From the NCBI RefSeq assembly GCF_045037415.1, contig NZ_CP173438.1: DNA of 64,000 bases. One strand, 5' to 3'. The position numbers and the translations under genes were made by a program. This document shows positions 7,441 through 58,401 of the stretch, piece after piece; position 1 is the first letter of the stretch; every line of letters starts with the position of its first letter. This DNA comes from Escherichia coli (GTDB lineage: Bacteria > Pseudomonadota > Gammaproteobacteria > Enterobacterales > Enterobacteriaceae). The notes beneath the pieces were generated by a model. The model was not told where the DNA came from. It made no database searches and was given only the letters and a program-made list of their open reading frames with translations.

Positions 7441-7448
7441 ATTATTCC

Positions 7449-8822: not shown

Positions 8823-8825
8823 AAC

Positions 8826-11933: not shown

Positions 11934-13053
11934 CAGGCGTTGCCTCCATTAGCCTGAACTTCAACAGCCTTGACGGTCTGCCCTGAAGTGACTTTGGCAG
12001 AACCTTCAACAATCAGTCGGTCGCCGTTGTGCAGGCCGTTCAGCACCAGCCATTTATCACCATACGTTTCTCCCGTTTCGAGCGTTCGCTGCTCTACTTT
12101 ATTGTCTTTATTCACCACCAGCGCAGTTGCATTGCCTTTAGCATCGCGCGTAACGCCCTGTTGAGGCGCGAGAATAGCGTTTTCCATCACGCCTTCATCG
12201 ACACGAGCGCGAACAAACATTCCCGGTAATAACTGCTGTTGTGGATTGGGGAAAATTGCCCGTAATATCACCGAACCGGTAGACTCATCCACCGCGACTT
12301 CGGTGAGTTCCAGACGCCCTTTTTCGCTGTAGGTTGTGCCATCTTCCAGAATAAGTGAGACGCTCATGGTGTCACTGTTGGTCGCCAGTGACTGTTTACG
12401 CAGACGTAATAAATCGACACTGGAGCGAGTGAGGTCGACATACATTGTATCCAGACCACGAATAGTCGTTAACGCTGTATCCTGCGACGCGGTCACCAGT
12501 GCGCCAGGGGTTACCGACGAAATACCAATACGCCCCGAAATCGGTGCGGTTACCGTGGTCCAGTCAAGATTAATGCGCGCAGTTTCCAGTGCGGCTTTTT
12601 TCGCCTCTACACTGGCTTTATCTTGTGCACAGGTAGACTGAGCATCATCAGCATCCTGTTGTGAAACACCATTCTCTTTCACCAGTCGGGCATAACGCTG
12701 CGCTTTCTGGCAATCGGCTTTTACCAGTGCCTGTGCTTGTTGTAATGCTGCCCGGGCTTCATTCCATGCAGCCTGATAACTGGCCGCATCAATCTGGTAG
12801 AGAGGCTGTCCAGCCTTGACCAGATCACCTTCCTTAAATAAGCGTTTCTGGATAATTCCCCCAACCTGCGGACGTACTTCAGCACTGAGCGCAGCACTGG
12901 TGCGTCCGGTTAATTCACTGACTACCGAAACCGGTTGAGATTTGAGCGTAACAACGCCGACTTCTGTTTCTGACGGGGATGAATTGTTACTTTGCGTATT
13001 ATCACAACCCGATAAGAGCAGCATTGCCACTACAGATGTTGCTATATACTTCA
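11933..13053 (-). CDS. RND efflux periplasmic adaptor (membrane fusion protein, AcrA/MexA family) lipoprotein
   Basis: Start chosen at MKYIATS with GGAG Shine-Dalgarno upstream (ORF track extends to 13087); lipobox LLLSGC; stop overlaps the RND start. Confidence 0.8.
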
Positions 13054-13080
13054 TTATTTTCTCCAGGGTGAGAAATACCC

Positions 13081-13153
13081 TCCTCATTGAAATTAATGAG
13101 GATATGTCAGGGATATTCAGTTATAACGAACCCGCATCGCGAAATGAATTTCG
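13081..13153. promoter_or_regulatory. Candidate operator region upstream of the efflux operon: two perfect 7-bp-arm palindromes (CCTCATT-N6-AATGAGG at 13081-13100; GCGAAAT-N2-ATTTCGC at 13138-13153)
   Basis: Palindromes directly seen between the TetR gene and the adaptor gene start; a TetR-type operator is inferred. Confidence 0.3.
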
Positions 13154-13163
13154 CAATGAAATA

Positions 13164-13181
13164 AGGGGGATTAATATCCCC
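13164..13181 (-). terminator. Hairpin GGGGGAT-taat-ATCCCCC downstream of the TetR gene
   Basis: Perfect inverted repeat followed by a T-rich stretch on the minus strand. Confidence 0.3.
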
Positions 13182-13202
13182 CGCTATTGGTTAATTCTGT
13201 TC

Positions 13203-13769
13203 TTATTTATTTATCAACATACTAACAATATCCTGATATATTTCCTGCAGATGTTGTGGATCGCTTTTTTGCGGTGTTAAACGACGATAAACCGTACCTT
13301 CCATCATGGTAGCAAACACTTCAACGCAGCAACGAATGTGCTCGTCGCTAAGATGGGGATGCATTCTTTTCATATGTGCACAACCGTTAGCGAACATTCT
13401 GGCGTCAGCTTCTTCAAGCATTGCCATAACCCGCGGGTTGCGTGTGGCTTCTGCAGCCACTTCCAGCATCAGCGCGTCGTCGTCCTCATTTAAGGATTTA
13501 CGCAAGGCAAGGACTTCCGGGAAGTGATCGGTACGCGCGTCAATGTCCATTTGGGCAATACGAAAGTCGATGATACGGCGAACCATCTCTTCAATAATGG
13601 CGTCTTTGTTGGCGAAGTAACGATATATCTGACCCACGCTAAGCTGAGCTTCGCTGGCAATTTGCGACATACTGGCGGCATGAAATCCGCAGCGACGAAA
13701 ACACCGACGGGCGGCGTTAATGATTTCATCCTGACGCTGTTTGTGGCGTATCTCCAGCTTGCTGGTCAT
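13203..13769 (-). CDS. TetR/AcrR family transcriptional regulator, probable regulator of the adjacent efflux operon
   Basis: N-terminal helix-turn-helix signature (ASMSQIASEAQLSVGQIYRYFANKDAI); start placed at MTSKLE with AGGAG upstream (ORF track extends to 13868). Confidence 0.75.
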   Translation of the reverse strand: MTSKLEIRHKQRQDEIINAARRCFRRCGFHAASMSQIASEAQLSVGQIYRYFANKDAIIEEMVRRIIDFRIAQMDIDARTDHFPEVLALRKSLNEDDDALMLEVAAEATRNPRVMAMLEEADARMFANGCAHMKRMHPHLSDEHIRCCVEVFATMMEGTVYRRLTPQKSDPQHLQEIYQDIVSMLINK

Positions 13770-14246
13770 TTCTGTCTCCTGGCCTATCACTTGGTGAGAA
13801 TGATCATTCTCATTTTTGCTAATTATACGTTTCTCCAAAGTAATGGAAAGTATTTTTATCTTATTCATGATGCATATTCTGATAATGAAGAGATTGTGGA
13901 GATTCTGTGAAGATAGTTGACAATATTAAGTTGGAGTCAATTCATCAGAAAGACAGCGACTTGTTGTCGCCAGTTCTGTTTTCATCATTAAACTTATAGG
14001 AGCTAATACGAATAGTTTCAAAGTCAGATTCTATAAGATATTTCCCCAACCTCCCCCTTGCAGGCGTCAGGAGTAGATAACGCAAAATGCTCTGTACCGC
14101 AGCTTCTCTCCGCTACAGAAAGCGCAACTATAGCCACCCACAGCCAGGTTGATTATAATAACCGTTTATCAGTTCGTACTGTTTACTAAAACGACGAATC
14201 GCCTGATTTTCAGGCACAACAAGCATCAACAATAAGGATTAAAGCT

Positions 14247-29451: not shown

Positions 29452-29809
29452 AGCTCCTCCTTAATGACAGGGTTGCGAAGCCCTGATTCTCTTCAGGGTG
29501 AATATTAAAGATAACACAAACATCGCGTAACGATTTGATAACAACCCAAATTGATAAAAGAGGAGAAACCTTGAGGCAAAGCAAACAGCGGGATCAGGGA
29601 TCAGTGAGTAATGATCCAGAGGAGTTCGGCCCAGAAGAGCATCGACAGAGAAAATGCGCCCATCCAGGACCAATATTTCATATTTGTGTTGATCATAGGC
29701 TACACCCTTAACGGTTATTACTTTGTGTTGAGATAACTCAACCTGTTATTGCTGCGGTGTATTAAAAGCCCTGTAATTCATTAAAAATGGGTAATAAGAA
29801 TGATGATAA

Positions 29810-36155: not shown

Positions 36156-36914
36156 ATGCATTACCAGCCAAAACAAGATTTACTCAATGATCGCATTATT
36201 CTGGTGACGGGAGCCAGCGATGGAATTGGTCGTGAAGCAGCGATGACGTATGCACGCTATGGTGCGACAGTGATTCTTTTGGGCCGTAATGAAGAAAAAT
36301 TACGTCAGGTAGCCAGCCACATAAACGAAGAAACTGGACGTCAGCCACAGTGGTTTATTCTCGATTTGCTAACCTGCACGTCCGAAGATTGCCAACAACT
36401 GGCACAGCGCATTGCCGTTAATTATCCGCGTCTGGATGGTGTTTTGCATAATGCCGGATTGCTCGGCGATGTTTGCCCAATGAGCGAACAAGATCCGCAA
36501 GTCTGGCAGGACGTCATGCAGGTCAACGTTAATGCCACCTTTATGCTCACCCAGGCACTGCTTCCTTTATTACTCAAATCCGACGCCGGTTCACTGGTCT
36601 TTACCTCATCAAGCGTTGGACGTCAGGGGCGTGCAAACTGGGGCGCATATGCAGCGTCGAAATTTGCCACCGAAGGGATGATGCAGGTACTGGCCGATGA
36701 ATATCAGCAGCGCCTGCGTGTCAACTGCATTAACCCAGGCGGTACGCGCACCGCAATGCGGGCCAGTGCCTTCCCGACCGAAGATCCACAGAAACTTAAA
36801 ACCCCCGCTGATATCATGCCGCTCTACCTCTGGCTGATGGGCGATGACAGCCGCCGTAAAACCGGCATGACCTTTGACGCCCAACCGGGCCGTAAACCAG
36901 GAATTTCCCAATGA
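36156..36914 (+). CDS. yciK: Short-chain dehydrogenase/reductase YciK
   Basis: TGASDGIG Rossmann motif and YxxxK catalytic motif. Confidence 0.85.
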   Translation: MHYQPKQDLLNDRIILVTGASDGIGREAAMTYARYGATVILLGRNEEKLRQVASHINEETGRQPQWFILDLLTCTSEDCQQLAQRIAVNYPRLDGVLHNAGLLGDVCPMSEQDPQVWQDVMQVNVNATFMLTQALLPLLLKSDAGSLVFTSSSVGRQGRANWGAYAASKFATEGMMQVLADEYQQRLRVNCINPGGTRTAMRASAFPTEDPQKLKTPADIMPLYLWLMGDDSRRKTGMTFDAQPGRKPGISQ

Positions 36915-37501
36915 GTGATGAACGCTACCAACAGCGTCAGCAGCGAGTGAAAGAAAAAGTAGATGCTCGTGTGGCCCAGGCCCAGGATGAACGCGGTATT
37001 ATCATCGTCTTTACCGGCAATGGAAAAGGCAAAACCACCGCGGCATTTGGTACGGCAACACGCGCAGTTGGTCACGGAAAAAAAGTGGGCGTCGTGCAGT
37101 TTATTAAAGGCACCTGGCCTAATGGTGAACGAAATCTGCTGGAGCCACACGGCGTTGAGTTTCAGGTAATGGCAACGGGCTTTACCTGGGATACACAAAA
37201 CCGAGAGTCCGATACCGCCGCCTGCCGCGAAGTCTGGCAACATGCAAAGCGGATGCTGGCTGATTCCTCACTGGATATGGTTTTGCTCGATGAACTGACA
37301 TATATGGTAGCGTATGACTATTTGCCACTGGAAGACGTGATTCAGGCGTTAAATGAACGTCCACATCAACAGACGGTGATTATCACGGGTCGAGGCTGTC
37401 ATCGGGATATTCTTGAACTGGCGGATACGGTAAGTGAGCTGCGCCCCATCAAACATGCGTTTGATGCCGGTGTAAAAGCGCAGATAGGGATTGATTACTA
37501 A
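36911..37501 (+). CDS. btuR: Cob(I)yrinic acid a,c-diamide adenosyltransferase BtuR (CobO)
   Basis: 196 aa, P-loop GNGKGKTTAA; start overlaps the yciK stop. Confidence 0.9.
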   Translation: MSDERYQQRQQRVKEKVDARVAQAQDERGIIIVFTGNGKGKTTAAFGTATRAVGHGKKVGVVQFIKGTWPNGERNLLEPHGVEFQVMATGFTWDTQNRESDTAACREVWQHAKRMLADSSLDMVLLDELTYMVAYDYLPLEDVIQALNERPHQQTVIITGRGCHRDILELADTVSELRPIKHAFDAGVKAQIGIDY

Positions 37502-37507
37502 GTGAAA

Positions 37508-37544
37508 GCACCTCAAAAGTTCGCCTCTTGAGGTGCTAATTTTA
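37508..37544 (+). terminator. Rho-independent terminator downstream of btuR
   Basis: Hairpin agcacctcaa ... ttgaggtgct followed by AATTTTA. Confidence 0.6.
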
Positions 37545-37557
37545 GATACTGAATGGC

Positions 37558-37866
37558 TTAATTAGCCACGGCAAAATTAAGAAGAGCTTGAATTTTATTC
37601 AAGTGTGCGGGATATTCCATATCATTATCCGCATTGACGTCTTCAATAAACAGTATTAATTCAGTGATCAAATCATTAGCATCTTCATAACTAATACCCG
37701 TCAGTTCTGGTGACGTTTGCGAGCCATAATTAATTGTCAGATTATTCATTACTGACAAAACCAGAATAAAATATTTGTGACATATATCGCAGGTTGTTCG
37801 GTTTCCTAAGGCATAGTACAGCATATTGAGCAATGCCAGTATTCGTCGATTTTGCACATCGTTCAT
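37558..37866 (-). CDS. Hypothetical protein, 102 aa (AT-rich islet gene 2)
   Basis: ORF 10 bp downstream of the lipoprotein gene on the same strand, markedly AT-rich; no recognisable motif. Confidence 0.5.
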   Translation of the reverse strand: MNDVQNRRILALLNMLYYALGNRTTCDICHKYFILVLSVMNNLTINYGSQTSPELTGISYEDANDLITELILFIEDVNADNDMEYPAHLNKIQALLNFAVAN

Positions 37867-37875
37867 AATGACCTC

Positions 37876-38898
37876 CTATAACATAACTCCGCTGGCAATA
37901 AGAAGTTTTGCCAGCTCCTCTGACGCCTGTAGACCACTAATAACTTGAGAACGAAGGATCTCATTTCTACGCTCTAAATCCGCTTTTGAAAGAGATTTAT
38001 TAGAGTATAAATCTTGTAGATGATTTCCTTTATCCATGAAGGCATTAATAGCTTGTATTGCTGGAGCCGCCGGATCAGATGAACGCAATCTGCTTTCATT
38101 AAGATTAATTACTGCACTCAAAAATTCCTGCCTGCTCTTTAATGTCTTAAACTCTATATTTTTAGTATTTGCCTGGGCCTTATTGTAGTAATAAAAATTA
38201 TTACTGATGTTCGCATAATTATTCCGATCCATTTGCTGCTGTTTCGTTGCTATATCATCGAGTAAATCTTGTAAATTTCTTTGAAGTCGAGGCCAGTCAC
38301 TACCTACCGTTTTACCAACATTTTCTGATTTAATCTTCTCTTTGTATAATCCATTGAAATATTGAACTAAATCTTTAACAGCCACAACTGACTTAGTCAA
38401 TTCTTCACCTTCTGAAAGGCCAAGTAGTTTTTGGGCGTTGTTTGCGTGATCGAGCGCCTGATTAAGTAATATAATTTGTTTACTATCCTCAACATCCATA
38501 CCCACCGTCAACAACTCCACATAGGAACTCATACTGTTAACGACCTCAAGTGAAGCCAGTAGTTTTTGTTTTTCTGTTGTTGCCAATTGAATTTTAGTAA
38601 TGTCTTTATACGATGTTTTGCCCCCTTTCTCTGATTGCAAACATAAGGACTCTTTATTAGTATTATTTTCCATAATCGTTTCGTAATCAGGTCGCAATGC
38701 ACAATCCGGATTAGTCGCATAAAAATTAACAAGAAAGTTTTCACGAGAAGCATAGTATTGTTTAAAGAAACTTGCATTCGCCGCAACCGCCTTGTTACCC
38801 GCAGTAATAACAGTTTCAGCTTGTTCATTCTTCAATGCTTCGGTTGCACAACCTGAAAGCATTAACAGCGATAGAAATATTCCACTATATCTAATCAT
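37876..38898 (-). CDS. Hypothetical lipoprotein, 340 aa (AT-rich islet gene 1)
   Basis: Signal peptide with lipobox LMLSGC (Cys17); hydrophilic, helix-rich body; AT-rich codon usage unlike the flanking genes. Confidence 0.6.
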   Translation of the reverse strand: MIRYSGIFLSLLMLSGCATEALKNEQAETVITAGNKAVAANASFFKQYYASRENFLVNFYATNPDCALRPDYETIMENNTNKESLCLQSEKGGKTSYKDITKIQLATTEKQKLLASLEVVNSMSSYVELLTVGMDVEDSKQIILLNQALDHANNAQKLLGLSEGEELTKSVVAVKDLVQYFNGLYKEKIKSENVGKTVGSDWPRLQRNLQDLLDDIATKQQQMDRNNYANISNNFYYYNKAQANTKNIEFKTLKSRQEFLSAVINLNESRLRSSDPAAPAIQAINAFMDKGNHLQDLYSNKSLSKADLERRNEILRSQVISGLQASEELAKLLIASGVML

Positions 38899-39027
38899 AA
38901 CCCACCTCTTGACGTTGAGTTTATCTCAGATAATTAAATAGTAATGTGGCTATTCCCTGGCATTATTCATAAGCAAGTATGAAATTAAATTAAAATACTG
39001 CGACTATTTATCATACTTCAAATGAAG

Positions 39028-39056
39028 AAAAGGCCCCGCAGGGCCTTTATTTAATA
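39028..39056 (-). terminator. Terminator hairpin downstream of rluB
   Basis: Hairpin aaaggccccgcagggccttt with flanking T-rich tracts. Confidence 0.55.
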
Positions 39057-39067
39057 CTTAACTTAAA

Positions 39068-39943
39068 TTAACCGTTATTATTACGTCCGCCAGAACGACG
39101 ACCGCCGCTCACCTGACTGTGACGTTTCACCGCACGACGAATCTGATTCGCCTTCATACGACGACGGTCTTTTTCTACAGCGACTTTAGAGCTGGTTTCT
39201 GGCGGTAGTTCCACCAGTTCGCGCAGATAGTTAGTCTGGGCGAGGTCCAGCTCCGTCCAGCCACCGCGTGGCAGACCTTTTGGCAGTGGGATATCACCGT
39301 AACGAACGCGAATCAGGCGGCTCACCTGCACACCAACCGCTTCCCACAGACGACGAACTTCACGGTTACGGCCTTCGGTCAGAGTAACGTTGTACCACTG
39401 GTTGATCCCTTCGCCGCCGCTGAACTTGATGGTTTTAAAGGCTGCCGGACCATCTTCCAGCTGCACGCCACGACTCAAATCACGCAGTTTCGCGTCGTCA
39501 ACCTGACCAAATACACGCACGGCATATTCACGTTCAACTTCACGGCTTGGATGCATTAAACGGTTTGCCAGTTCACCGTCGGTGGTGAACAACAACAGAC
39601 CACAGGTGTTAACGTCCAGACGACCTACGGCAATCCAGCGTGCGCCACGCAGCTTTGGCAGACGGTCAAACACCGTTGGACGCCCTTCCGGATCGTTACG
39701 GGTACACAACTCACCTTCCGGTTTGTAATAGGCCAGAACGCGACAAATTTGTTCAGCGGACTCACGTACCGAAATCAGGTGACCATCGATACGGATTTTC
39801 AGTCCAGGGGTAATTTCAACGCGATCGCCGAGTTTAGCAATTTTGCCATCAACACTCACACGACCGGCTTCAATAATAGATTCGATTTCACGGCGAGAAC
39901 CGTGGCCGGCACGCGCCAGCACTTTCTGTAGCTTTTCGCTCAT
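39068..39943 (-). CDS. rluB: 23S rRNA pseudouridine synthase RluB
   Basis: 291 aa with an S4 domain, RsuA-family core and Arg/Gly-rich C-terminal tail. Confidence 0.9.
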
Positions 39944-40155: not shown

Positions 40156-42051
40156 TTACCAGCCACCACCGCCTCCGCCACCCGCACCGCCGCCAGCACC
40201 ACCACCGGAATAACTTCGCCCCAACAAACTGGTATTGGCCCCCAGACTCAGATGCATCTGTAATGAGAACAAAACGCCACTACGGGCAATTTCCGGGGCG
40301 CGGACAGCCGCTGTGAGTGATGGGGTGATACGTGCAGCCCATTCTCTGCCAAGGTTTGCCGAGACCGCCCAACCTAACAAAGCGTAATCCAGTTTCCGTG
40401 CTTCCCCTTTCCTCCGCCGCCCACTGTGTGTTGCTGCCTCTTTACGCGCAAGATAGTTAACGATAGCTTCACCGTGGGCATAACGTTGCTGCCCAGTTTG
40501 GGTAAACTTTGGCAGAAAAATATACCCCATGCCAGTGAGATAACCGGTCAGGAAAACAGCGCTAAAATAACCCGCTGGCATATACCAGTAAAAGAATACA
40601 TCTCCGACATTGATGTAGAGAGAATAGAAGGCCACGCCTGAACAAATCAGTGGTAAAAACAAAGTGATGATTACACGATTAACGCAAGGCTTGTCATCAT
40701 CGCGGGCAAACAAAAGCTCAAGGGAACAAAATAAGAAAGGAAGAAGCCAGCAGATCATAATAAACATATCGCCTACCAGACTCATTCCTGCCCAACCTAC
40801 GGGACTCAGGTTACCGTAGAGAATGACCGCCAATATCGCCATCCCGCCCCATTGCAAAAACGCATCAGGTCGGTAAAACGAAGACTTTTTACGCGGCAGA
40901 TAAAATTTCTGCATCCGTAAAAATGCCTTGCGTAAGACTCTGTTGCGTCTCCCCGTAAGAACGACCTTATCGCCTTTACGAAATAACGCTTCCAGTAATA
41001 ACTGCTCTGCGGGCAGTAATACCGCATTATTTCTGGTCGCGCCTTCATTAACACGAATCAGGATTTGCTGGTTCTTGTCATAATGAGCTTCCAGATGAAT
41101 TTTTCCTTTCACAATCAGATTTACGATATCGGCGCAAAAACCTTTATCGTCATAAACCAGCTTCGCATCGAGACGTAACATGCCGGGCGTGTAATCTGGC
41201 GGAATGACATCGGTTTCAATCACATCTACCGGCGTAAATTGCGGCCTGCGCTTCCAGAGATATAACCATCCACACGCCAGGAACAGGCACGGAAACCAAA
41301 TTAACAACGATGACGTAGAGGGTAAAAGAAGATGGCTGAAAATATTCGTCGTTTGTGGTGCCGGGGCATTACCAAGTAAAGCGTGAGGCCAGCGGTAGAG
41401 GACCGTGAAATCTTCACGATAAAACGGATCGCGAGATTCAATTCTTCCGTCCTCAAGGATGCGGCCATTTCGATATGTGTCGCCCTCATCTCCGGTAAAG
41501 AGATCGATTTCGCTAAATGGATTACCCGCAATATCAGGCAACTTGAGTGAAAATAGGGTCTTATATATTTCAAACGGCCAGTGGTTACCGGTCACGTTCC
41601 AGATTAGCAGATCAGAATCCCCCTCACGCAGGAAAGCATTTTTAACCTGATAATGAATTTGATAATGATAGTCGCCTTGAGGCAAGAAACGTTGTTTATC
41701 GCCCACGACAATACTCATTAACCCGATATGCCAGTCAAGATGCCAGGGTTCAGAAATACCATCACGGGTGACGCCAACAATATGATAGTTCAGCAGTGCA
41801 GCGTCCCCATCAGGCTGCATCCAGAGTCGCGGTAAATCACGATAAAATCCGTGCTTAATCTGCTGATTTCGCGCCTGAAAATGAATGTTCTCTTTGATGT
41901 CGAGCACCCCATTCGGTTGCAGAGTGGCTTCAACATCAAAGAGCGAGATCCCTTCTTCATAAGAAGGGATCTCCGTGTTTTTCGCATAACTCAACGAAGA
42001 GAAAAAAAGCCCAACTATCAATAGCAAAATGCAGCGATATATCCCTGCCAT
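40156..42051 (-). CDS. yciQ: Inner membrane protein YciQ (DUF2207 family)
   Basis: 631 aa with multiple transmembrane segments and a Gly-rich C-terminus, in the K-12 position. Confidence 0.8.
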   Translation of the reverse strand: MAGIYRCILLLIVGLFFSSLSYAKNTEIPSYEEGISLFDVEATLQPNGVLDIKENIHFQARNQQIKHGFYRDLPRLWMQPDGDAALLNYHIVGVTRDGISEPWHLDWHIGLMSIVVGDKQRFLPQGDYHYQIHYQVKNAFLREGDSDLLIWNVTGNHWPFEIYKTLFSLKLPDIAGNPFSEIDLFTGDEGDTYRNGRILEDGRIESRDPFYREDFTVLYRWPHALLGNAPAPQTTNIFSHLLLPSTSSLLIWFPCLFLACGWLYLWKRRPQFTPVDVIETDVIPPDYTPGMLRLDAKLVYDDKGFCADIVNLIVKGKIHLEAHYDKNQQILIRVNEGATRNNAVLLPAEQLLLEALFRKGDKVVLTGRRNRVLRKAFLRMQKFYLPRKKSSFYRPDAFLQWGGMAILAVILYGNLSPVGWAGMSLVGDMFIMICWLLPFLFCSLELLFARDDDKPCVNRVIITLFLPLICSGVAFYSLYINVGDVFFYWYMPAGYFSAVFLTGYLTGMGYIFLPKFTQTGQQRYAHGEAIVNYLARKEAATHSGRRRKGEARKLDYALLGWAVSANLGREWAARITPSLTAAVRAPEIARSGVLFSLQMHLSLGANTSLLGRSYSGGGAGGGAGGGGGGGW

Positions 42052-50569: not shown

Positions 50570-50756
50570 GTTTTAAAAAATGCAATAAGACATTGTATCT
50601 GAAAGAAAAAACAGGATTTGAGGCGCTTTTTTATACCGTTTTTCCGTGTTTTTAACTGCCTGATTTTATTGAAATCTTTTTTAGTTTTGCAGAAAGGATT
50701 TTTTGCTCGATCGCTTTAATTTTATACATTCCTGATAACGGAAATTTTTTTGCCCG

Positions 50757-50786
50757 TTGACAGTTTTTGTTCTCCGGGGCTATATT
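50757..50786 (+). promoter_or_regulatory. Candidate sigma70 promoter (TTGACA, 18-bp spacer, TATATT) upstream of the Rha gene
   Basis: Consensus-like hexamers read in the sequence; function inferred. Confidence 0.3.
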
Positions 50787-51013
50787 CCTCACACAACCGC
50801 AAAATCGGTTGTCGGGATTGGCGTCTCGGATAACATCACAACGCATAGCCGCGTTTGCGGTTTTTTTTGCGTTAAGCATTGCCACATTCGCATTATGGTG
50901 GGGCGTGCAGGGGCGGAGAAATCCGCGCCGGGTTTTGTGATGACCGGTTACGCCAACCCTGTACGTCTCACCACCTCCCTGATTGGCGTCAGAGGTGGTG
51001 ATCATCCAATTAA

Positions 51014-51586
51014 TTGGAGTCATCACATATGAATACAGCTATAACTTTTTCTAACGAGTCACCAAAAGTCTTTTTCAAAGATGGTCGCCTGGTTACCACC
51101 TCTCAAGCTGTTGCCGACTACTTCGATAAACAACATAAACACGTTTTAGCTAAGATTGACACACTCGACTGCTCTCCCGAATTTACATCAGCCAACTTTT
51201 CGGCCGATGTTCAGACTGTCGAAATTGGCAACGGCGCAGAACGTGAATCACGATGCTACCTGATCACAAAAGACGGCTTCATGTTCCTCGTAATGGGATT
51301 TACTGGCAAAAAAGCAGCCAGACTAAAAGAAGCTTACATTGAAAAATTTAACGCAATGGAAGAAGAACTCCACAAACGTCCTCCTGCAGCACAAAACTCC
51401 CCCGCCCCAAATAATGGATGCGCATTACTGATCCACTTCGATAAACACGGTCAGGTCGAGTTCACAGAAAAAGTCCCCGCCGATGCGATGGTATGCACGC
51501 TGGAACGGTTTAAATTTTATCTGGAGCAACATGGGTGGATCGTTGCCCGTAAAGAACAATTGGTGGAAAGGTTGATGCGGTTTTAA
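51014..51586 (+). CDS. Phage regulatory protein, Rha family (190 aa)
   Basis: N-terminal Rha-type motif (VTTSQAVADYFDKQHKHVLAKIDTL; LVMGFTGKKAARLKEAYIEKFNAME). Confidence 0.7.
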   Translation: MESSHMNTAITFSNESPKVFFKDGRLVTTSQAVADYFDKQHKHVLAKIDTLDCSPEFTSANFSADVQTVEIGNGAERESRCYLITKDGFMFLVMGFTGKKAARLKEAYIEKFNAMEEELHKRPPAAQNSPAPNNGCALLIHFDKHGQVEFTEKVPADAMVCTLERFKFYLEQHGWIVARKEQLVERLMRF

Positions 51587-51593
51587 TGAATGC

Positions 51594-51626
51594 AAAACCC
51601 CGGATGATCACCGGGGTTAATTTTAT
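51594..51626 (+). terminator. Rho-independent terminator downstream of the Rha gene
   Basis: Hairpin aaaaccccgg-atgatca-ccggggtt followed by AATTTTA. Confidence 0.6.
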
Positions 51627-51947
51627 CGAGCGTGATTGCCGCTAATCGCCATCGCTCTGATTGAGCGTAAATCATTCAGGTTATTCAGTTCTTCCTTCTG
51701 CTCTCGCTGACGTCAATAAATCCCATCATTGCGATCAACCTCATCCTTAACCATTGATGCGAGCAGTTCTTCCAGTTTCTGCGCTGACAGCTTTACCTGG
51801 TGATCTTCAGCATCTTCCCGGGCTATTGTGGTTCGCGCAGTGGCTGATTTTGCTGACATCACCACAGGGGGCAGACGGACCATTGAACCATGGCCTCCGG
51901 AACAAATAAGGGCAAAAATAACAACCACTATCGAAAGCTCACAAACT

Positions 51948-52085
51948 AACCGCAGCACGTTCCTGCATACGACGTGTCTGCGGCATAATCCCAATGATTA
52001 CTCCCTGACAGGATTTGCAGGCCACTCAATATCAGGTGCAGTTGATGTATCAACACGATTCAACAATACCCGATATTTATTCCAT
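51948..52085. repeat. Direct repeat copy 1 (about 140 bp): tfa 3' end plus its terminator hairpin
   Basis: Roughly 85-90 percent identical by eye to 52998-53135 (aaccgcagcacgt...ggcataatcccaatgattactccctgacag...ggccactcaatatcaggtgcagttgatgtatcaacacg). Confidence 0.8.
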
Positions 52086-52267
52086 GCCTCCAGCAACGAT
52101 CTTTCTTCCTCCGTTGCGATTTCCAGATCTACAGCATCCTGCAGTGGCGCAATATACTCACTGAATTCCTGGATGTAGAACTGTGTGGTGACGGTCTTCC
52201 AGCCATTCGGCTCCTGCTGTATCGAAGCATACCAGGCTATTTCAATATCGCTATGCTGCGGCAGCAT
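51998..52267 (-). pseudogene. Tail fibre assembly protein (Tfa) C-terminal fragment, 89 codons
   Basis: C-terminus ...[36 protein letters not shown] resembles the intact Tfa at 54952-55479; the N-terminal half is missing. Confidence 0.65.
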
Positions 52268-52323
52268 TTAACCCCTTGTAATTCATCGCCATAATTGATT
52301 TAATTCACAAATAAAACTATAAC

Positions 52324-52992
52324 ATGGTGAAATCAATGAAAAAAAACACAGATGATGGGGCTAAAATTTACACACCACTTACCCTAAAGCTTTATGACTG
52401 GTGGGTTTTGGGAGTATCAAATCGGCTTGCATGGGGATGTCCTACAAAGGAACACCTTCTTCCACACTTTCTGGAACATGTAGGTAACAACCATCTGGAT
52501 ATTGGTGTTGGAACTGGGTTTTACCTTACTCACGTACCTGAGAGTAGTCTGATATCTTTAATGGATTTGAACGAAGCTAGCCTGAACGCGGCATCTACAA
52601 GGGCTGGGGAATCAAAAATTAAACATAAAATTAGCCATGATGTTTTTGAACCTTATCCCGCGGCGTTACATGGTCAATTTGATTCCATTTCCATGTTTTA
52701 CCTTCTTCACTGCCTGCCTGGAAATATATCTACAAAAAGCTGTGTAATACGCAATGCGGCGCAGGCCTTAACTGACGATGGAACTCTATACGGAGCCACA
52801 ATTCTTGGCGATGGAGTTGTGCACAATAGCTTCGGTCAAAAACTGATGCGCATTTACAATCAGAAAGGCATCTTTTCAAACACAAAAGATTCCGAAGAAG
52901 GCTTAACACATATACTCTCAGAGCATTTCGAGAATGTTAAAACCAAGGTTCAAGGTACTGTAGTAATGTTTTCCGCTTCAGGGAAAAAATAG
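52324..52992 (+). CDS. Class I SAM-dependent methyltransferase (222 aa), prophage moron
   Basis: Motif I LDIGVGTGFY; AT-rich coding sequence; flanked by the diverged tfa 3' repeats. Confidence 0.7.
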   Translation: MVKSMKKNTDDGAKIYTPLTLKLYDWWVLGVSNRLAWGCPTKEHLLPHFLEHVGNNHLDIGVGTGFYLTHVPESSLISLMDLNEASLNAASTRAGESKIKHKISHDVFEPYPAALHGQFDSISMFYLLHCLPGNISTKSCVIRNAAQALTDDGTLYGATILGDGVVHNSFGQKLMRIYNQKGIFSNTKDSEEGLTHILSEHFENVKTKVQGTVVMFSASGKK

Positions 52993-52997
52993 CATCC

Positions 52998-53135
52998 AAC
53001 CGCAGCACGTTCTTGCTTAAGACGTGCTGCGGCATAATCCCAATGATTACTCCCTGACAGGGTTCGTAGGCCACTCAATATCAGGTGCAGTTGATGTATC
53101 AACACGGTTCAGTAACACCCGATACTTTTTCTAGG
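52998..53135. repeat. Direct repeat copy 2: tfa 3' remnant plus hairpin (ccgcagcacgt...acgtgctgcgg)
   Basis: Paralogous to 51948-52085; the hairpin lies immediately after the methyltransferase stop. Confidence 0.8.
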
Positions 53136-53139
53136 CTTC

Positions 53140-53373
53140 CACCACCAGCACGACAAGATGCCGCATACAGTGAACCAGTCAGTCCAGTTTTCAGACAACC
53201 AGTGCGTCACCTTTTTGAAGGCGCTTTAAAGCACGTTTTAATCCAGGTCGGCCTGTCCTTGTTCCGCTTAATTTATCTTCAAATATTTGTTCATATCCTG
53301 CACAAACAAGAGCGTTTCGTTGCAGATCTGTATTCTGGTCATTTGTTGATACCCTTACATAGCCAATCAGCAC
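53140..53373 (-). pseudogene. pin: DNA invertase Pin/Gin/Hin family, truncated and interrupted
   Basis: N-terminal serine recombinase signature (V)LIGYVRVSTNDQNTDLQRNAL...LKRLQKGDALVV, then in-frame stop, degenerate sequence and fusion to the tfa remnant about 75 codons in. Confidence 0.8.
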
Positions 53374-53427
53374 GCTGAATCTCCCGTCCAAAAGCACAAA
53401 TCATGCCATGCAGGCCAGAAACCGCCA

Positions 53428-53453
53428 TTATCTAAAACCTCGGTTTACGAGAA
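53428..53453. repeat. Invertase crossover site (pix/gix-like, TTATCTAAAACCTCGGTTTACGAGAA)
   Basis: 26-bp site matching the Gin/Pin crossover consensus, inverted relative to the site at 56509-56534. Confidence 0.85.
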
Positions 53454-54386
53454 CTCGGCACAAGCGGGGAGAAAATACCGTTACTCAGTACAGCGAATAC
53501 CTGGACTAATCGACAAACATTCAGCGGTGGCCTTTCTGGTGAACTATCCGGCAATGCTTCTACAGCTGCAAAATTAAAAACTGCCAGGAAAATAAGCAAT
53601 GTGGCTTTTGATGGTTCCTCCGATATCACATTAAAAGCAAGTCATGTTGGTGCGTTTGCCTTAGGGAAAACAGGAAGCACCGTTGCGAATGATAAAGCAG
53701 TTGGATGGAACTGGAGTAGCGGAGCCTATAACGCAACTATTAGTGGTGCATCAACGTTAATTATTCATTTTTATATGGGAGAAGGAAGTTGTCCTGCAGC
53801 TCAGTTTCGGATTAATTATAAAAATGGCGGTATTTTTTATCGTTCAGCCCGTGATGGTTATGGTTTTGAAGCCGACTGGTCCGAATTTTACACCACCACC
53901 AGAAAGCCTTCAGCAGGAGATGTTGGTGCACTGCCGTTATCTGGTGGTCAACTGAATGGTGCACTGGGTATCGGAACATCCAGTGCTCTTGGCGGTAATT
54001 CGATTGTATTGGGTGATAATGACACGGGCTTTAAACAAAATGGCGATGGTAATCTGGATGTTTATGCTAATAACGTCCATGTTATGCGCTTTGTCTCCGG
54101 AAGCATTCAAAGTAATAAAACCATAAATATTACAGGGCGTGTTAACCCCTCGGATTACGGTAACTTTGATTCCCGTTATGTGAAAGATGTTCGACTTGGT
54201 TCACAGCAATATTATGGAGTGAACAACTGGCAAACATGGAATTTCCAGTGCCCTTCAGGTCATGTATTGTCTGGTATTAATGTTCAGGATACAGGGTCTA
54301 ACTCTGCCGATAATATAGCGGGCGTTTATTACAGACCCGTTCAAAAGTATATAAATGGCACCTGGTATAATGTAGCGAGCGTTTAA
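53441..54386 (+). CDS. Silent alternative tail-fibre C-terminal cassette (receptor-binding domain), in frame from the crossover site
   Basis: Frame open from the crossover site ([61 protein letters not shown]...); shares ALGGNSIxLGDNDTGxKQxGDG and QKYIxGxWYNV motifs with the expressed Stf C-terminus; ORF track lists 53601..54386. Confidence 0.7.
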
Positions 54387-54387
54387 T

Positions 54388-54921
54388 ATGATGCACTTAA
54401 AGAACATAAAAGCGGGTAATGCTAAAACACTGGAACAGTATGAGTTAACAAAGAAACACGGAGTTATCTGGCTTTACTCTGAGGACGGAAAAAACTGGTA
54501 TGAGGAAGTGAAAAACTTTCAGCCAGACACCATAAAGATTGTTTACGATGAAAATAATATTATTGTTGCCATAACCAAAGATGCCTCCACACTTAACCCT
54601 GAAGGTTATAGCGTCGTTGAGATTCCTGATATTACCGCCAACCGGCGTGCTGACGACTCAGGTAAATGGATGTTTAAAGATGGCGCAGTCATTAAACGTG
54701 TATATACCGAAGAAGAGTTGCGCCTACAGACGGAAAACCAGAAAAAAATATTATTACAGCAGGCCAGAGAAAAAACGCAGTTCTGGCAAACACAGCTTAC
54801 TTTGGGGATTATCACTGATTCAGACAGACAGCAACTGATGAACTGGATGCGATACGTGCAACAGGTTGAGACAACTGATACCTCGGTTCTTCCTGTAACA
54901 TTCCCGGAACCACCAGAATAA
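54388..54921 (+). CDS. Tail fibre assembly protein Tfa (cognate to the silent cassette)
   Basis: 177 aa paralogous to the minus-strand Tfa (MxHLKNIxAGNxKT..EQYxLTKK.GVIWLY.EDGKNWY). Confidence 0.8.
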
Positions 54922-54922
54922 G

Positions 54923-54947
54923 AAAAGGCCCGTACGGGCCTTAATTT
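54923..54947. terminator. Bidirectional terminator at the centre of the invertible segment
   Basis: Hairpin aaaaggcccgtacgggcctt between the convergent tfa genes. Confidence 0.6.
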
Positions 54948-54951
54948 GTTG

Positions 54952-55479
54952 TTATTCTGGTTTCTGTGGCCATTCAGGCTTTGCAGTATCCACACGGCTG
55001 ACCATAACGCTGTAGCGTTCCCATGATTCCAGTCGTGTGCGTTCCTCATCAGTTGCCATATTCAGTCTGACAGCACGTTCCAGCGGTTGAATCACAGACT
55101 CCGCTTCGGAAAGCAAAGCGGCTTTTTGTAACTCTGCCTGCTGTTGCAGTTCCTGTTTTGTATATTCCCGCTTTACTACTTTACCATCCAGAAACTTCCA
55201 GTTTCCCGAGATATCGGCGCGACGGTTGGCTGTTATATTCGGTAACTCAACAACACTTAACCCGTCAGGGTTAAGTGTTGATACGTCTTTCTCAATACAA
55301 CGAATAATCCCCTTCTGGTCATAAGCTATTTTTAAAGTATCATCCTGAAAGTTTTTTAATTCGTCATACCAGTTTTTACCGTCTTCTGTATATAGCCAGA
55401 TAACGCCAGCTTTTTTCGTAAGCTGATACTGCTCAATGGTTTTGGGGTTTCCGGCGGTAATATTTTTCAGATGTTGCAT
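54952..55479 (-). CDS. Tail fibre assembly protein Tfa (expressed orientation)
   Basis: 175-aa ORF directly downstream of stf. Confidence 0.85.
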
Positions 55480-55494
55480 ATATTCTCCTGATGG

Positions 55495-58401
55495 CTATGC
55501 CTGTTCAACGTTATACCAGTTACCAGAAATGTATTTTTGTAGTGGTCGTGACACCATCCAGTCATCTCCATCAACCTCACCAATAATTTGCAATCCTGTT
55601 GTCACATGACCATTACCTGGTTCGCAAAGTCCTCCGCGATATAATGTGTCAGAACGTCTGCCTCCCAGACGCACATTTCTGATAAAAGAACTATTCAGGT
55701 AATCATTTAAGTTTGACCCCCAGCACCCACCAAATATATTTCCATCGGTGTTATAACGGACGCCACCCGCAATAAGAGCACCCGGTGAAATAAAGGATTT
55801 ATCGTTCGGGTTAAACTGCCATAAAGCATCATTACCGCCATCGCCACGCATATGAATACATGGAACCGGAAATCCATACTGTTCTGTCAGTAAATACCCA
55901 AAGCTGACCGCGCCGGGATAGCCCTGTCCATTGCGAATGGACAAGCCCTTAACTATCGGCACGTAAAGACCACCAGGAGTGGGATTCCAGGCAAACTGCG
56001 TCTGAACAAAAGGCGCGGTGGCATTATTCAACTGGTCTGCAAATGCGCCACTTCCATCAGGAATTATTCCCTGATGAATATATGCAACCCGCTTATAAAA
56101 ATCAGCAGATGCGGGTTGAAGCCCAAATGCCAGTTGTCCATTTGAATAGAATAAAAGGACACCGTCGCCGCCCTGTTTAATACCAGTGTCGTTATCTCCG
56201 AGAGTAATGGAATTACCGCCCAGTGCGTTATCTGTACCAAGCGCCAGCCCACCATCAATTTTGGCCCCGTGGCTGACAGATATAGCACCTGTTCTCAGAT
56301 TTATAGCGAATGGCCTTAATGGGCCGATATCACCGTTTTCGCCTTGTCCTTCAGCCGTCGGAATGAAATGAAGAAAATCTTCTGAACGACGGAAAATAAG
56401 ACCGAAGGCATCATTGAAAATTCGCAGCGCATTCACCGTGCCAATTTTCAGTTCTCCGGTCATTTTATCGCCGGAACGCTGAACGGCGTTACCAGCCTTG
56501 TTTACCGTTTCCTGTAAACCGAGGTATTCGATAACGGCGGCAACGGTCGATTTCGCAAGAATATCCCGCCCAACTTTTGTCAGGGTTGCCAGACTGGCAA
56601 CATCATTCCCCGTAAAATACGGAAACCTGTCTGCCGCAGTAGCAAGCCCGGCCAGCGCCGTCAGGGTGGCATCTTTCGGTTGCTTACCCGCAAGCGCGCT
56701 AGTCATGGTGGTCGCAAAATTCGGGTCGTTGCCCAACGCCGCAGCCAGCTCGTTCAGCGTATTCAGTGCGTCAGGCGACGAGTCCACGAGGGCAGCGATC
56801 GCAGCCATAACATAAGCCGTGCTTGCGATTTGGGTATTATTCGTTCCCTGTCGCGCAGTTGGTGTTGTTGGCGTTCCGGTCAGTGCAGGACTATTTAAGG
56901 GCGCTTTCTTGTTCGTTTCACCCATTACCGCCTTAACCGCTTTTGGCGTTGCCGCCAGTGACTCGGAAGTGCTGTTGGTCGCACTGCTGAGCTGTACTAT
57001 CCCCTTTTTCGTCGTGCTCGCATCCTCAAGCGCCACGGCGGATGCAATATCCTCTGCCCGTTTTGCCGCTGTCTCGGCGCGCGTTGCCGCGGATTCCGCC
57101 GTACTTTTGCTCTGAGCTGCCGCCGTCGCACTGCCAGCTGCCTCTGTCGCCTTCGTGGATGCCGTCGTGGCGCTGCCCTTTGCTGCTGACGCCTGTCTGG
57201 TCGCCTCATCTTTTGAAGCAGACGCAGATGATGCCGATGACGCCGCTGAACTGGCTGACGATGCGGCTGCCGCCTTAGAGGAAGCAGCATTGTCTGCTGA
57301 AGTCTTTGCATTTGTTTCAGAGGTTTTTGCTGCAGAAGCAGACCTCGCTGCTGCAGTGGCTTGCTCAGTGGCTTTGCCAGCCTTCGTTGTGGCTGTTGAA
57401 GCGGATGATGCGGCGCTTTCTGCCGATTTTCCGGCGGCGGTGGCACTGGCTGAGGCCTGCCCGGCACTTGTTGACGCGGCACTGGCAGATAATGCAGCCG
57501 CTGTTTTTGAACCTGCCGCAGCTGAGGCGCTCTGTCCCGCTGCTGTTTCAGAAGACTTAGCGTTCGTCTCGGACGTTTTTGCCGCCTTCGCGGAATTTCC
57601 TGCCGCCGTTGCCGAGGAAGCTGCACTACTGGCACTTGATGATGCATTCGTTTCTGAAGATTTCGCTGCCTCTTTTGAGGCCGCCGCACCCCGTGCCGAG
57701 GTGGCAGCTTCTGACGCCTTCGTGGTCGCTGTGGATGCAGAAGTGGCTGCCGATTTTTGTGATGCTGCGGCATTCGTTTCTGACGTTTTCGCGGCACTGG
57801 CGCTGGTAGCTGCCGCGCTTTTTGATGACTCTGCAGCAGCAGCACTTTTTGCTGCTTCACGGGCCTTTGTCGATGCCGTTCCTGCGCTGGAAGACGCTGA
57901 CTGAGCCGACGACGCGGCCTGTCCGGCTGACGTGCTGGCGGCACGTGATGAGGCTGCAGCATCGGTTGCATGAGTTGCCGCCTCGCTGGCTGATGCACTG
58001 GCATCGCTGGCTGATTTTTTCGCGGCTGCCGTATTCTGTGCAACCGCGGAGGCGTTACGTGACACCTCTTCTACCATCTGCTCAAAGCGGCGCAGTGCCT
58101 CCGGTCGTACATCATCCTCCGTCATGGCACCGAGAAAATCATTCAGCGTACCTGGTCTGGAACCTTCATAGACGGTAATGGTCCCGGCATGTGAAGGCGG
58201 AAAACCTTCAACCAGCAGGGTGACGCTGTACTGACCATGCTCAACATCCATGCTGTAACGTCCGGCTTCATCCGGATTTTCAGAGGCCACCGTGTTCACC
58301 ACCACCGTGCTGCTGGTTCGTCTGGCCTTCAGCACAATGGTGCAGTTCTGTACTGGTTTTCCTGTGCCATCTTTAAGCACGCCAGAAATTTTTACTGTCA
58401 T
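55495..58401 (-). CDS. stf: Side tail fibre protein Stf (968 aa): lambda-like constant N-terminal part fused at the crossover site to variable C-terminal cassette A
   Basis: N-terminus MTVKISGVLKDGTGKPVQNCTIVLKARR... recognised as lambda Stf-like; long Ala/Ser/Thr-rich repeat region; crossover site encodes IEYLGLQET. Confidence 0.9.
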   Translation of the reverse strand: MTVKISGVLKDGTGKPVQNCTIVLKARRTSSTVVVNTVASENPDEAGRYSMDVEHGQYSVTLLVEGFPPSHAGTITVYEGSRPGTLNDFLGAMTEDDVRPEALRRFEQMVEEVSRNASAVAQNTAAAKKSASDASASASEAATHATDAAASSRAASTSAGQAASSAQSASSSAGTASTKAREAAKSAAAAESSKSAAATSASAAKTSETNAAASQKSAATSASTATTKASEAATSARGAAASKEAAKSSETNASSSASSAASSATAAGNSAKAAKTSETNAKSSETAAGQSASAAAGSKTAAALSASAASTSAGQASASATAAGKSAESAASSASTATTKAGKATEQATAAARSASAAKTSETNAKTSADNAASSKAAAASSASSAASSASSASASKDEATRQASAAKGSATTASTKATEAAGSATAAAQSKSTAESAATRAETAAKRAEDIASAVALEDASTTKKGIVQLSSATNSTSESLAATPKAVKAVMGETNKKAPLNSPALTGTPTTPTARQGTNNTQIASTAYVMAAIAALVDSSPDALNTLNELAAALGNDPNFATTMTSALAGKQPKDATLTALAGLATAADRFPYFTGNDVASLATLTKVGRDILAKSTVAAVIEYLGLQETVNKAGNAVQRSGDKMTGELKIGTVNALRIFNDAFGLIFRRSEDFLHFIPTAEGQGENGDIGPLRPFAINLRTGAISVSHGAKIDGGLALGTDNALGGNSITLGDNDTGIKQGGDGVLLFYSNGQLAFGLQPASADFYKRVAYIHQGIIPDGSGAFADQLNNATAPFVQTQFAWNPTPGGLYVPIVKGLSIRNGQGYPGAVSFGYLLTEQYGFPVPCIHMRGDGGNDALWQFNPNDKSFISPGALIAGGVRYNTDGNIFGGCWGSNLNDYLNSSFIRNVRLGGRRSDTLYRGGLCEPGNGHVTTGLQIIGEVDGDDWMVSRPLQKYISGNWYNVEQA
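56509..56534. repeat. Invertase crossover site inside stf (TTCCTGTAAACCGAGGTATTCGATAA)
   Basis: Reverse complement matches the site at 53428-53453 at 22 of 26 positions; Gin/Pin consensus. Confidence 0.85.

Follow-up and report, generated by a model that had tools for sequence, protein, structure and literature searches.

A dispensable lipoprotein operon with one empty and several deeply diverged alleles at the rluB–btuR junction of Escherichia coli

Examination of a 64,000-nucleotide stretch of DNA from Escherichia coli (contig NZ_CP173438.1, assembly GCF_045037415.1), referred to here as the window, revealed that the convergent core genes btuR and rluB are separated by a pair of minus-strand genes encoding a 340-aa prolipoprotein and, downstream of it, a 102-aa protein (Table 1). 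The pair is well supported as a dispensable, self-contained and seemingly expressed operon of two genes. In Escherichia it is a long-standing resident of the rluB–btuR junction, where an empty allele persists alongside three or more occupied ones that have diverged deeply. The spacer between btuR and rluB (37502–39067) is 1566 bp long with a G+C content (GC) of 0.363, which is the minimum among all segments of this length in the 64 kb (mean 0.499, standard deviation 0.036). Along the spacer GC varies between 0.32 and 0.41 compared with 0.50–0.56 on both sides, and GC at third codon positions is 0.31 and 0.34 in the two spacer genes as opposed to 0.48–0.55 in neighbouring genes. The neighbours of the pair are btuR, yciK, sohB, rluB, yciQ and yciO.

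A first-pass annotation of this DNA had placed two tightly linked open reading frames (ORFs) in a low-GC stretch at a site where rluB and btuR are adjacent in strain K-12. All three observations were confirmed, by the ORF list, by the GC profile and by the K-12 chromosome, in which rluB and btuR lie 39 bp apart. The K-12 spacer holds one palindrome, ATGCCGGA-N7-TCCGGCAT, and is without similarity to either end of the 1566-bp stretch; the entire spacer is swapped between the two states. The hairpin that separates the stop codons of btuR and the small gene probably acts as a terminator shared by these genes and is unrelated in sequence to the hairpin of the K-12 spacer. The annotation had further described the insert as framed by native terminators and as preceded by a promoter-like region. 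Neither description could be upheld, as the framing hairpins are not those of K-12, whose spacer has one different hairpin, and as the 130 nt upstream of the lipoprotein gene (38899–39028) are merely AT-rich, with no sigma-70-like site found by a promoter scan. Short chance repeats were the only ones detected and none of them, direct or inverted, brackets the stretch; no attachment-site (att)-like repeat, integrase or other mobility ORF was found.

Table 1. Features of the btuR–rluB junction and of the gene pair within it (window positions).
Feature	Position	Strand	Description and basis
btuR/cobO	36911-37501	+	Flanking core gene, converges on spacer; ORF list
Hairpin between btuR stop and small-gene stop	37507-37537	.	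13-nt arms, 92% complementary, 5-nt loop
Variable cassette	37511-38710	.	Lipoprotein codons ~73 to end, small gene and terminator; 100-bp-window identity
102-aa protein gene	37558-37866	-	ORF list
Intergenic spacer of 9 nt	37867-37875	-	Sequence
340-aa prolipoprotein gene	37876-38898	-	ORF list; protein starts MIRYSGIFLSLLMLSGC
Loop bounded by Cys66 and Cys86	38641-38703	-	Homologue comparison
Conserved block	38711-39067	.	First 72 lipoprotein codons, 130-nt AT-rich upstream region and rluB terminator; 91–100% among all Escherichia alleles
Signal peptide and lipobox	38848-38898	-	Codons 1–17, LMLSGC, Cys17; sequence
rluB intrinsic terminator	39029-39048	-	8-bp stem with 5 GC pairs, then T-run; divides rluB from the pair
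rluB	39068-39943	-	Flanking core gene, converges on spacer; ORF list

The distribution of the pair was evaluated by sensitive blastn against 5426 complete E. coli genomes, with coverage of at least 80% of the stretch required for a carrier. This resulted in 1234 carriers (~23%) with one copy per genome. A contiguous K-12-type junction was observed in 4183 genomes, meaning that 77% are without the pair. As the occupied and K-12-type states together cover 5417 of the 5426 genomes, the locus represents a clean presence/absence polymorphism. The pair is accordingly not a set of core genes present at this junction in most strains, and its earlier description as a compositionally deviant, accessory two-gene unit is borne out by both the GC minimum and its absence from 77% of the genomes. 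The exact window allele is found at 100% identity in many human clinical E. coli isolates, and carriers also originate from poultry, livestock, water and wildlife. Both class-A and class-B genomes (classes defined below) include cases of independent IS1 insertion into the 5′ part of the lipoprotein gene, and in one genome IS1 alone was left at the site. Protein clusters of 276–293 aa at 56% identity at first suggested a fourth class, or else another paralogous locus in E. coli, but they derive from class-B genes into which IS1 has inserted around codons 58–65. Likewise, three matches in PLSDB are not plasmids; the records are chromosome-sized or mislabelled chromosomal records of the trp-linked locus.

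The occupied alleles fall into three classes. Class A comprises 778 carriers that are at least 95% identical to the window, 566 of them at 99% or more, while the other 459 carriers are 60–80% identical to it overall. In class B (~418 genomes) the megablast match is limited to 38684–39067 at 95–99% identity and the lipoprotein has 333 aa, whereas class C (39 genomes) matches at 80–90% over a longer part and encodes a lipoprotein of 340 aa. The differences are concentrated in a cassette that spans most of the pair (Table 1), over which identity between classes is 54–72% in most 100-bp windows and ~85% at the junction of the two genes. On the rluB side, the window allele is 95–100% identical to classes B and C over 38711–39943, which takes in rluB, the upstream region and the first 72 codons and where the classes agree at ~98%; on the other side identity returns to ~88–100% in btuR. 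At the protein level, lipoproteins of different classes share 96–100% of residues 1–72, 52–56% of residues 73–300 and 70% of the last 40, and the class-A small protein is 72–75% identical to those of the other classes. The classes are thus homologous over their entire length, with a conserved C-terminus and no swapped C-terminal domains. The class-C lipoprotein, which is 68% identical to that of class B, goes with a small protein that is 94% identical to the class-B partner (L002), and the two genes can therefore recombine apart.

The pair is also present between rluB and btuR in three other species: in E. albertii it is class-A-like at 85% identity, in E. whittamii it belongs to class B (97%), and in Citrobacter sp. 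ANG330 identity is 55%. A Citrobacter amalonaticus protein at 54% identity was found by Foldseek. A pseudogene was found in the type strain of E. albertii, whose lipoprotein gene is split into fragments of 244 and 96 aa. Synonymous divergence (dS) was calculated by a simple counting method (Nei-Gojobori) for a handful of sequences with one genome per outgroup species. Between E. coli and E. whittamii, both of class B, dS was 0.21 for the lipoprotein gene and 0.08–0.26 for the small gene, compared with 0.25–0.27 for rluB and 0.28–0.39 for btuR. The corresponding class-A values between E. coli and E. albertii were 0.82 for the lipoprotein gene, 0.45 for the small gene, 0.62 for rluB and 0.96 for btuR. 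Within E. coli, class A against B or C gave a lipoprotein dS of 1.0–1.2 overall and of 1.6–2.2 or saturation past codon 72, with saturation also in the small gene, at an rluB dS of 0.06–0.11 and a btuR dS of 0.27–0.40. Because same-class dS between species about equals that of the flanks, these comparisons indicate that the synonymous rate of the cassette is ordinary and that the classes predate the Escherichia species compared. The dS pattern fits an ancient polymorphism that runs across species, or very old exchange, and not recent acquisition. Among E. coli strains, dS was 0.10–0.46 in btuR (at least 0.16 in most pairs) as opposed to 0.03–0.11 in rluB, and a breakpoint in identity was observed within btuR near position 37110. 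The raised diversity of btuR may reflect hitch-hiking with the variable cassette, as linkage to an old polymorphism would give.

Horizontal acquisition, as suggested in the first-pass annotation, is supported in so far as the composition is deviant and the presence patchy (1234/5426). As a recent event it is largely refuted, given the occupied junctions in the three other species named above, the flank-like same-class dS, the lack of an integrase or att-like repeat and framing terminators that are not those of K-12. A recently arrived islet carrying a toxin/immunity or exclusion module would explain the low GC and atypical codon use, the absence from 77% of genomes and the presence of a relative as a prophage moron (see below). 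It is nevertheless very improbable in light of the three other species that share the site, the agreement between cassette and flank divergence and the missing repeats, integrase and att sites; the sole mobile DNA seen there is IS1, which in some strains has entered the lipoprotein gene or taken the place of the pair.

Both genes are real and under purifying selection, because the ratio of nonsynonymous to synonymous divergence (dN/dS, Nei-Gojobori) is 0.09–0.25 for the lipoprotein and small genes and the corresponding polymorphism ratio within classes (pN/pS) is at most 0.54 in every segment of the lipoprotein. Each has a strong Shine-Dalgarno sequence: that of the lipoprotein gene, GAGGTG, lies 6 nt 5′ of its ATG, and that of the small gene, AGGAGG, overlaps the TAG stop codon of the lipoprotein gene, an arrangement that is suited to translational coupling of the two.

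The N-terminus of the lipoprotein fits the lipobox [LVI][ASTVI][GAS]C, the criterion for substrates of Lgt, LspA and Lnt. According to the Lol sorting rule in Enterobacteriaceae, a residue other than Asp at position +2 leads to the outer membrane. Residue +2 is Ala (mature N-terminus CATE...) and no aligned homologue has Asp at this position; the protein is hence predicted, from the +2 Ala and the Lol rule, to be destined for the outer membrane. After processing it would be a protein of 324 aa and ~36 kDa that is predicted to be all-helical. Across 22 divergent aligned homologues only Cys17, Cys66, Cys86 and Tyr126 are invariant, conservation elsewhere being confined to hydrophobic positions. 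Variation in length and sequence of the lipoprotein peaks in the loop between Cys66 and Cys86 and in the residues after it, up to about residue 105. This pattern of conservation suggests an exported, disulfide-bonded and non-enzymatic helical protein: a periplasmic disulfide is proposed because the lipobox and two further cysteines are invariant in the 22 homologues, and a non-enzymatic role because the family-wide invariants are limited to those four residues and the hydrophobic positions.

Foldseek searches with the lipoprotein model returned proteins with the automatic names DUF3829, imelysin-like and PilJ/NarX-type (four-helix sensors) at E values of 1e-5 to 4e-3 and template modelling (TM) scores of 0.3–0.5. 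A DUF3829 protein was matched at an E value of 3.9e-3 with a TM score of 0.33, obtained with a query model of a predicted local distance difference test (pLDDT) score of 53. Proteins of these types, including the DUF3829 protein YiiG of E. coli, resemble the lipoprotein in size (~330–350 aa), N-terminal lipobox and all-helical prediction. Homology to YiiG was nonetheless dropped, since hhalign of the family profile against K-12 YiiG aligned the lipobox alone at a probability of 1.3% and no family member had a Pfam match to DUF3829 or related families.

The small protein is acidic (pI 4.4), lacks a signal peptide and is predicted to form a four-helix bundle (pLDDT 87). It is inferred to be cytoplasmic. 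Its best fold matches are the executioner bundles of MLKL, plant CC and HeLo proteins. A C26-x-x-C29-H30 motif (codons 26–30, window 37776–37790) and H88 are invariant within the Escherichia/Citrobacter clade and could together be a metal site; the motif and His88 are not kept in remoter partners. The alternative that CxxCH is a haem-c site behind an N-terminal signal peptide was rejected on the grounds that the N-terminal helix belongs to the confidently modelled bundle, and also that the remote partners have neither the motif nor a signal-like N-terminus.

In a word-indexed search of 5.8 billion sequences the lipoprotein matched only 26 clusters and the small protein only 15. Their named sources were Escherichia or Citrobacter and their products were called 'hypothetical protein' or 'lipoprotein'. 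The family profile, run as a hidden Markov model over 1.84 billion representative proteins, found 56 proteins, of which ~30 are full-length (324–357 aa, 18–26% identity). The named sources of these remote relatives were Buttiauxella agrestis, Raoultella, Klebsiella, Rahnella and Pantoea, alongside high-GC metagenomic sequences, and a lipobox is present in every full-length relative. An ORF of 96–107 aa was found 2–25 nt 3′ of the lipoprotein gene in nine of ten remote homologue neighbourhoods examined, the tenth having a 269-aa ORF with a hydrophobic tail instead. A downstream ORF is likewise present in Citrobacter, where it has 105 aa, and in E. albertii, where it has 102 aa. That the pair belongs to an undescribed, sparsely distributed proteobacterial module, in which a helical lipoprotein of ~330–350 aa is followed by an ORF of ~100 aa, is therefore well supported. 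Between the remoter partners and the small protein, the resemblance is limited to position and size, a helical N-terminus and a single Cys.

The relative in Buttiauxella agrestis lies in a P2-like prophage. Its lipoprotein shares 25% of residues with the window protein in BLASTP (E 1e-25), and its partner was aligned to the window small protein by hhalign at a probability of 89% (E 2.4e-6, 35% identity over 78 columns). The Buttiauxella pair forms an insert of 34–40% GC in a background of 55–60%, between the tail terminator/tail-completion genes R and S and the baseplate genes V and W. P2-like phages have three known moron regions, and S–V (orf30) is one of them (PMC6823313). The P2 anti-phage hotspot described by Rousset et al. 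is located at gpA–gpQ, not S–V (PMC9122126), and hence lends no support to a defence role. The E. coli pair itself is not at such a moron site, being flanked by core genes. Evidence for mobility of the family is thus real but consists of a single case. Other contexts were ordinary or mildly 'variable' chromosomal regions; examples of their neighbours are a transposase, an H-NS paralogue, and VapBC with Fic and a Y1 transposase. The remote lipoprotein gene that lies close to VapBC, Fic and the Y1 transposase has directly 5′ of it a 413-aa ORF without a Pfam match and a PF04185 phosphoesterase, a family of the phospholipase C/acid phosphatase type.

Neither window protein had a meaningful match in Pfam, NCBIfam, PADLOC or PHROGs. 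The lipoprotein was without a Pfam match at E ≤ 0.001, and a search of 22 family members against Pfam gave one isolated match to the unrelated HEPN_DZIP3. PADLOC-DB v2.0.0 yielded no match at E ≤ 1 for the window proteins and chance-level matches (E 0.006–0.04) for remote members, PHROGs gave chance-level matches only, remote members included, and PDB sequence profiles gave none. The first-pass annotation had been unable to assign a family, and these searches likewise yield none; nor did the profile searches reveal homology to a well-characterised housekeeping function. Toxin or immunity domains and invariant residues of a catalytic type were not found in Pfam, NCBIfam or the family alignment, and no delivery system (type V secretion/contact-dependent inhibition (CDI), type VI secretion, Rhs or outer-membrane exchange) was found among the neighbours of the pair. 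Literature searches found no paper on either protein.

The reading that we favour, at a probability of roughly 0.3, is that the pair constitutes an envelope-level protection or exclusion module whose discrete allele classes are alternative specificities. The prolipoprotein would be exported, lipidated at Cys17 and sorted to the outer membrane via its +2 Ala, where it would fold as a non-enzymatic helical bundle with a Cys66–Cys86 disulfide loop. By binding an envelope component or an incoming agent, such as a phage, a bacteriocin or the effector of another cell, it would then bring about protection or exclusion. The small acidic four-helix protein, translationally coupled to it, would remain in the cytoplasm, where it would serve as a holdase or neutraliser of the lipoprotein precursor, or else as a regulator. 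A more far-reaching version, in which the pair is the founding case of an undescribed two-component envelope conflict module, a new kind of exclusion or immunity system against phage, bacteriocin or contact-dependent attack, with types held under balancing selection since before the genus diversified and capturable by temperate phages, is doubtful.

Several results weigh against the protection or exclusion reading. No homology ties either protein to a function in PADLOC, PHROGs, Pfam, NCBIfam or PDB, the lipoprotein was modelled poorly (pLDDT 53), and its fold matches amount to generic helical bundles. Homology of the partner was not detected beyond Buttiauxella (hhalign probability 0.1%), and no direct mechanistic evidence supports an exported protein having a cytoplasmic partner. 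The pairing of a class-C lipoprotein with a class-B-like partner would argue against tight cognate specificity of the two proteins. There was no sign of ongoing positive selection within classes, and repeated IS1 disruption together with an empty frequency of 77% is compatible with a pair of little current value. With regard to phages and plasmids, no family match was found in 50,697 phage genomes by tblastn with the window lipoprotein and P0050, pattern scans of IMG/VR gave no relatives, none were found on true plasmids (PLSDB, including searches with P0053 and P0076), and a prophage setting was seen in only one of the contexts examined.

The main rival is that the pair is a dispensable envelope accessory without a role in conflict, be it structural or related to stress or niche physiology, and that its classes are the outcome of ancient population structure and a recombination barrier made by their own divergence rather than of balancing selection. 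In favour of this are the purifying selection within classes without a positive-selection signal, the ordinary chromosomal neighbourhoods in which most remote homologues reside, the frequent loss and IS1 disruption and the pseudogene in the E. albertii type strain. Three classes and a null that extend across species boundaries with dS > 1 are, however, hard to reach neutrally, and both the raised diversity in adjacent btuR and the capture of a complete pair by a prophage as a moron speak against this explanation, which we consider possible though on the unlikely side. A surface factor of the host-interaction or lysogenic-conversion type, conferring for instance serum resistance or adhesion in the manner of Bor/Iss or TraT, is a good deal less probable. 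It would account for an outer-membrane-type lipoprotein, for the identical allele in many human clinical isolates and for a relative at a prophage moron location, and discrete old antigen-like types would be expected of it. The protein is nevertheless without similarity to the Bor, Iss and TraT families, the sources of carriers extend to poultry, livestock, water and wildlife, and environmental high-GC bacteria have remote homologues; the cytoplasmic partner is moreover left unexplained.

Two further explanations assign a killing function to one of the proteins. In the one, the lipoprotein is an exported or delivered effector, comparable to SitA of Myxococcus, and the small acidic protein confers immunity. 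The order of effector and small acidic gene with translational coupling, the conserved 5′ part followed by a variable remainder and downstream gene, and the nature of the partner are all in keeping with a polymorphic toxin, as colicin immunity proteins are small acidic helical bundles as well. This is offset by classes that are homologous throughout (52–56%) instead of carrying swapped unrelated toxin domains, by the lack of a toxin domain, conserved catalytic-type residue or nearby delivery machinery and by the class-C lipoprotein that is paired with a class-B-like partner. Lipoprotein genes interrupted by IS1 moreover keep the partner gene, lipoprotein-only states not having been searched for. 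The effector and immunity explanation is for these reasons improbable. In the other, which resembles abortive infection or a toxin–antitoxin system, the small four-helix bundle would be a membrane-acting killer that is sensed or controlled by the lipoprotein. That the pair is a two-gene accessory module with a prophage relative is in favour of this, but the proteins would lie in different compartments with no transmembrane link between them and PADLOC gave no match, and we regard this possibility as slight.

Comparison with known systems places the lipoprotein close to Llp of T5, Cor of phi80 and N15, Bor/Iss of lambda and TraT of F, which are likewise accessory, non-enzymatic proteins of the outer-membrane type, often AT-rich. 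These are carried as morons or accessory genes, as is the Buttiauxella relative of the pair in its P2-like prophage, and TraT is in addition accompanied by TraS, another small exclusion protein, which differs from plasmid to plasmid. The lipoprotein differs from all of them in being without sequence similarity (Pfam, PHROGs), in being much larger (324 aa mature) and all-helical, and in that the E. coli copy is found off mobile elements. TraS is furthermore an inner-membrane protein, whereas the partner described here is soluble, acidic and predicted to be cytoplasmic. As accessory outer-membrane lipoproteins are already known as morons, what is new is the combination of a large helical lipoprotein with a predicted cytoplasmic four-helix partner and deep polymorphism at a core site.

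The CDI systems CdiA-CT/CdiI, Rhs and SitA/SitI share with the pair a conserved 5′ part with a divergent remainder, a small variable downstream gene and presence/absence with multiple alleles within one species. They differ in that the variable parts of the pair are homologous alleles of one fold (52–56%), that its locus is without a toxin/immunity domain or delivery system and that the allele of the partner does not always follow the class of the lipoprotein. With respect to population genetics, the O-antigen rfb genes, fliC and the hsd immigration-control region hold discrete diverged types at one site that are exchanged via conserved flanks. The likeness would lie in deep types at one site, raised diversity of neighbouring genes and types common to several species, whereas the cassette described here is tiny (1.2 kb), with three types and a null seen.

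Some allele of the pair is carried by ~23% of complete E. coli genomes, yet neither protein has been assigned to a family, named or described in a paper. As an object of study the locus is unusually clean in that it offers one site with a null allele, three old types, purifying selection and a homologous prophage copy. Allele swaps should be simple and could reveal a new mechanism of envelope-level protection or interaction. Function aside, the locus is a compact example of polymorphism common to Escherichia species, and it illustrates that low GC and patchy presence alone do not signal recent horizontal transfer.

Additional features were observed elsewhere in the window. On the rluB side of the pair, yciQ (DUF2207, 631 aa; window 40156–42051) has yciO and rluB on its two sides in E. 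coli and E. whittamii; E. albertii and Citrobacter sp. ANG330 lack it at this position. A five-gene efflux cluster is found between the sap operon and the fabI-side genes (6277–13868, minus strand), consisting of a TetR-like regulator (13203–13868), a 384-aa ORF (11933–13087), a resistance-nodulation-division permease (8826–11933), a NodT-type outer-membrane factor (7449–8822) and a Bcr/CflA-type major facilitator superfamily transporter (6277–7440). Prophage-like material lies directly 3′ of trpA (~50650–58400) and includes isrK (50793–50867), a C4 antisense RNA (50891–50978) and a Rha-family phage regulator (51014–51586); several of its ORFs, among them one of 968 aa (55495–58401), are without an NCBIfam match. 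The enterobacterial small RNA STnc180 was identified as a full-length Rfam match of 182.6 bits on the minus strand at 29557–29769.

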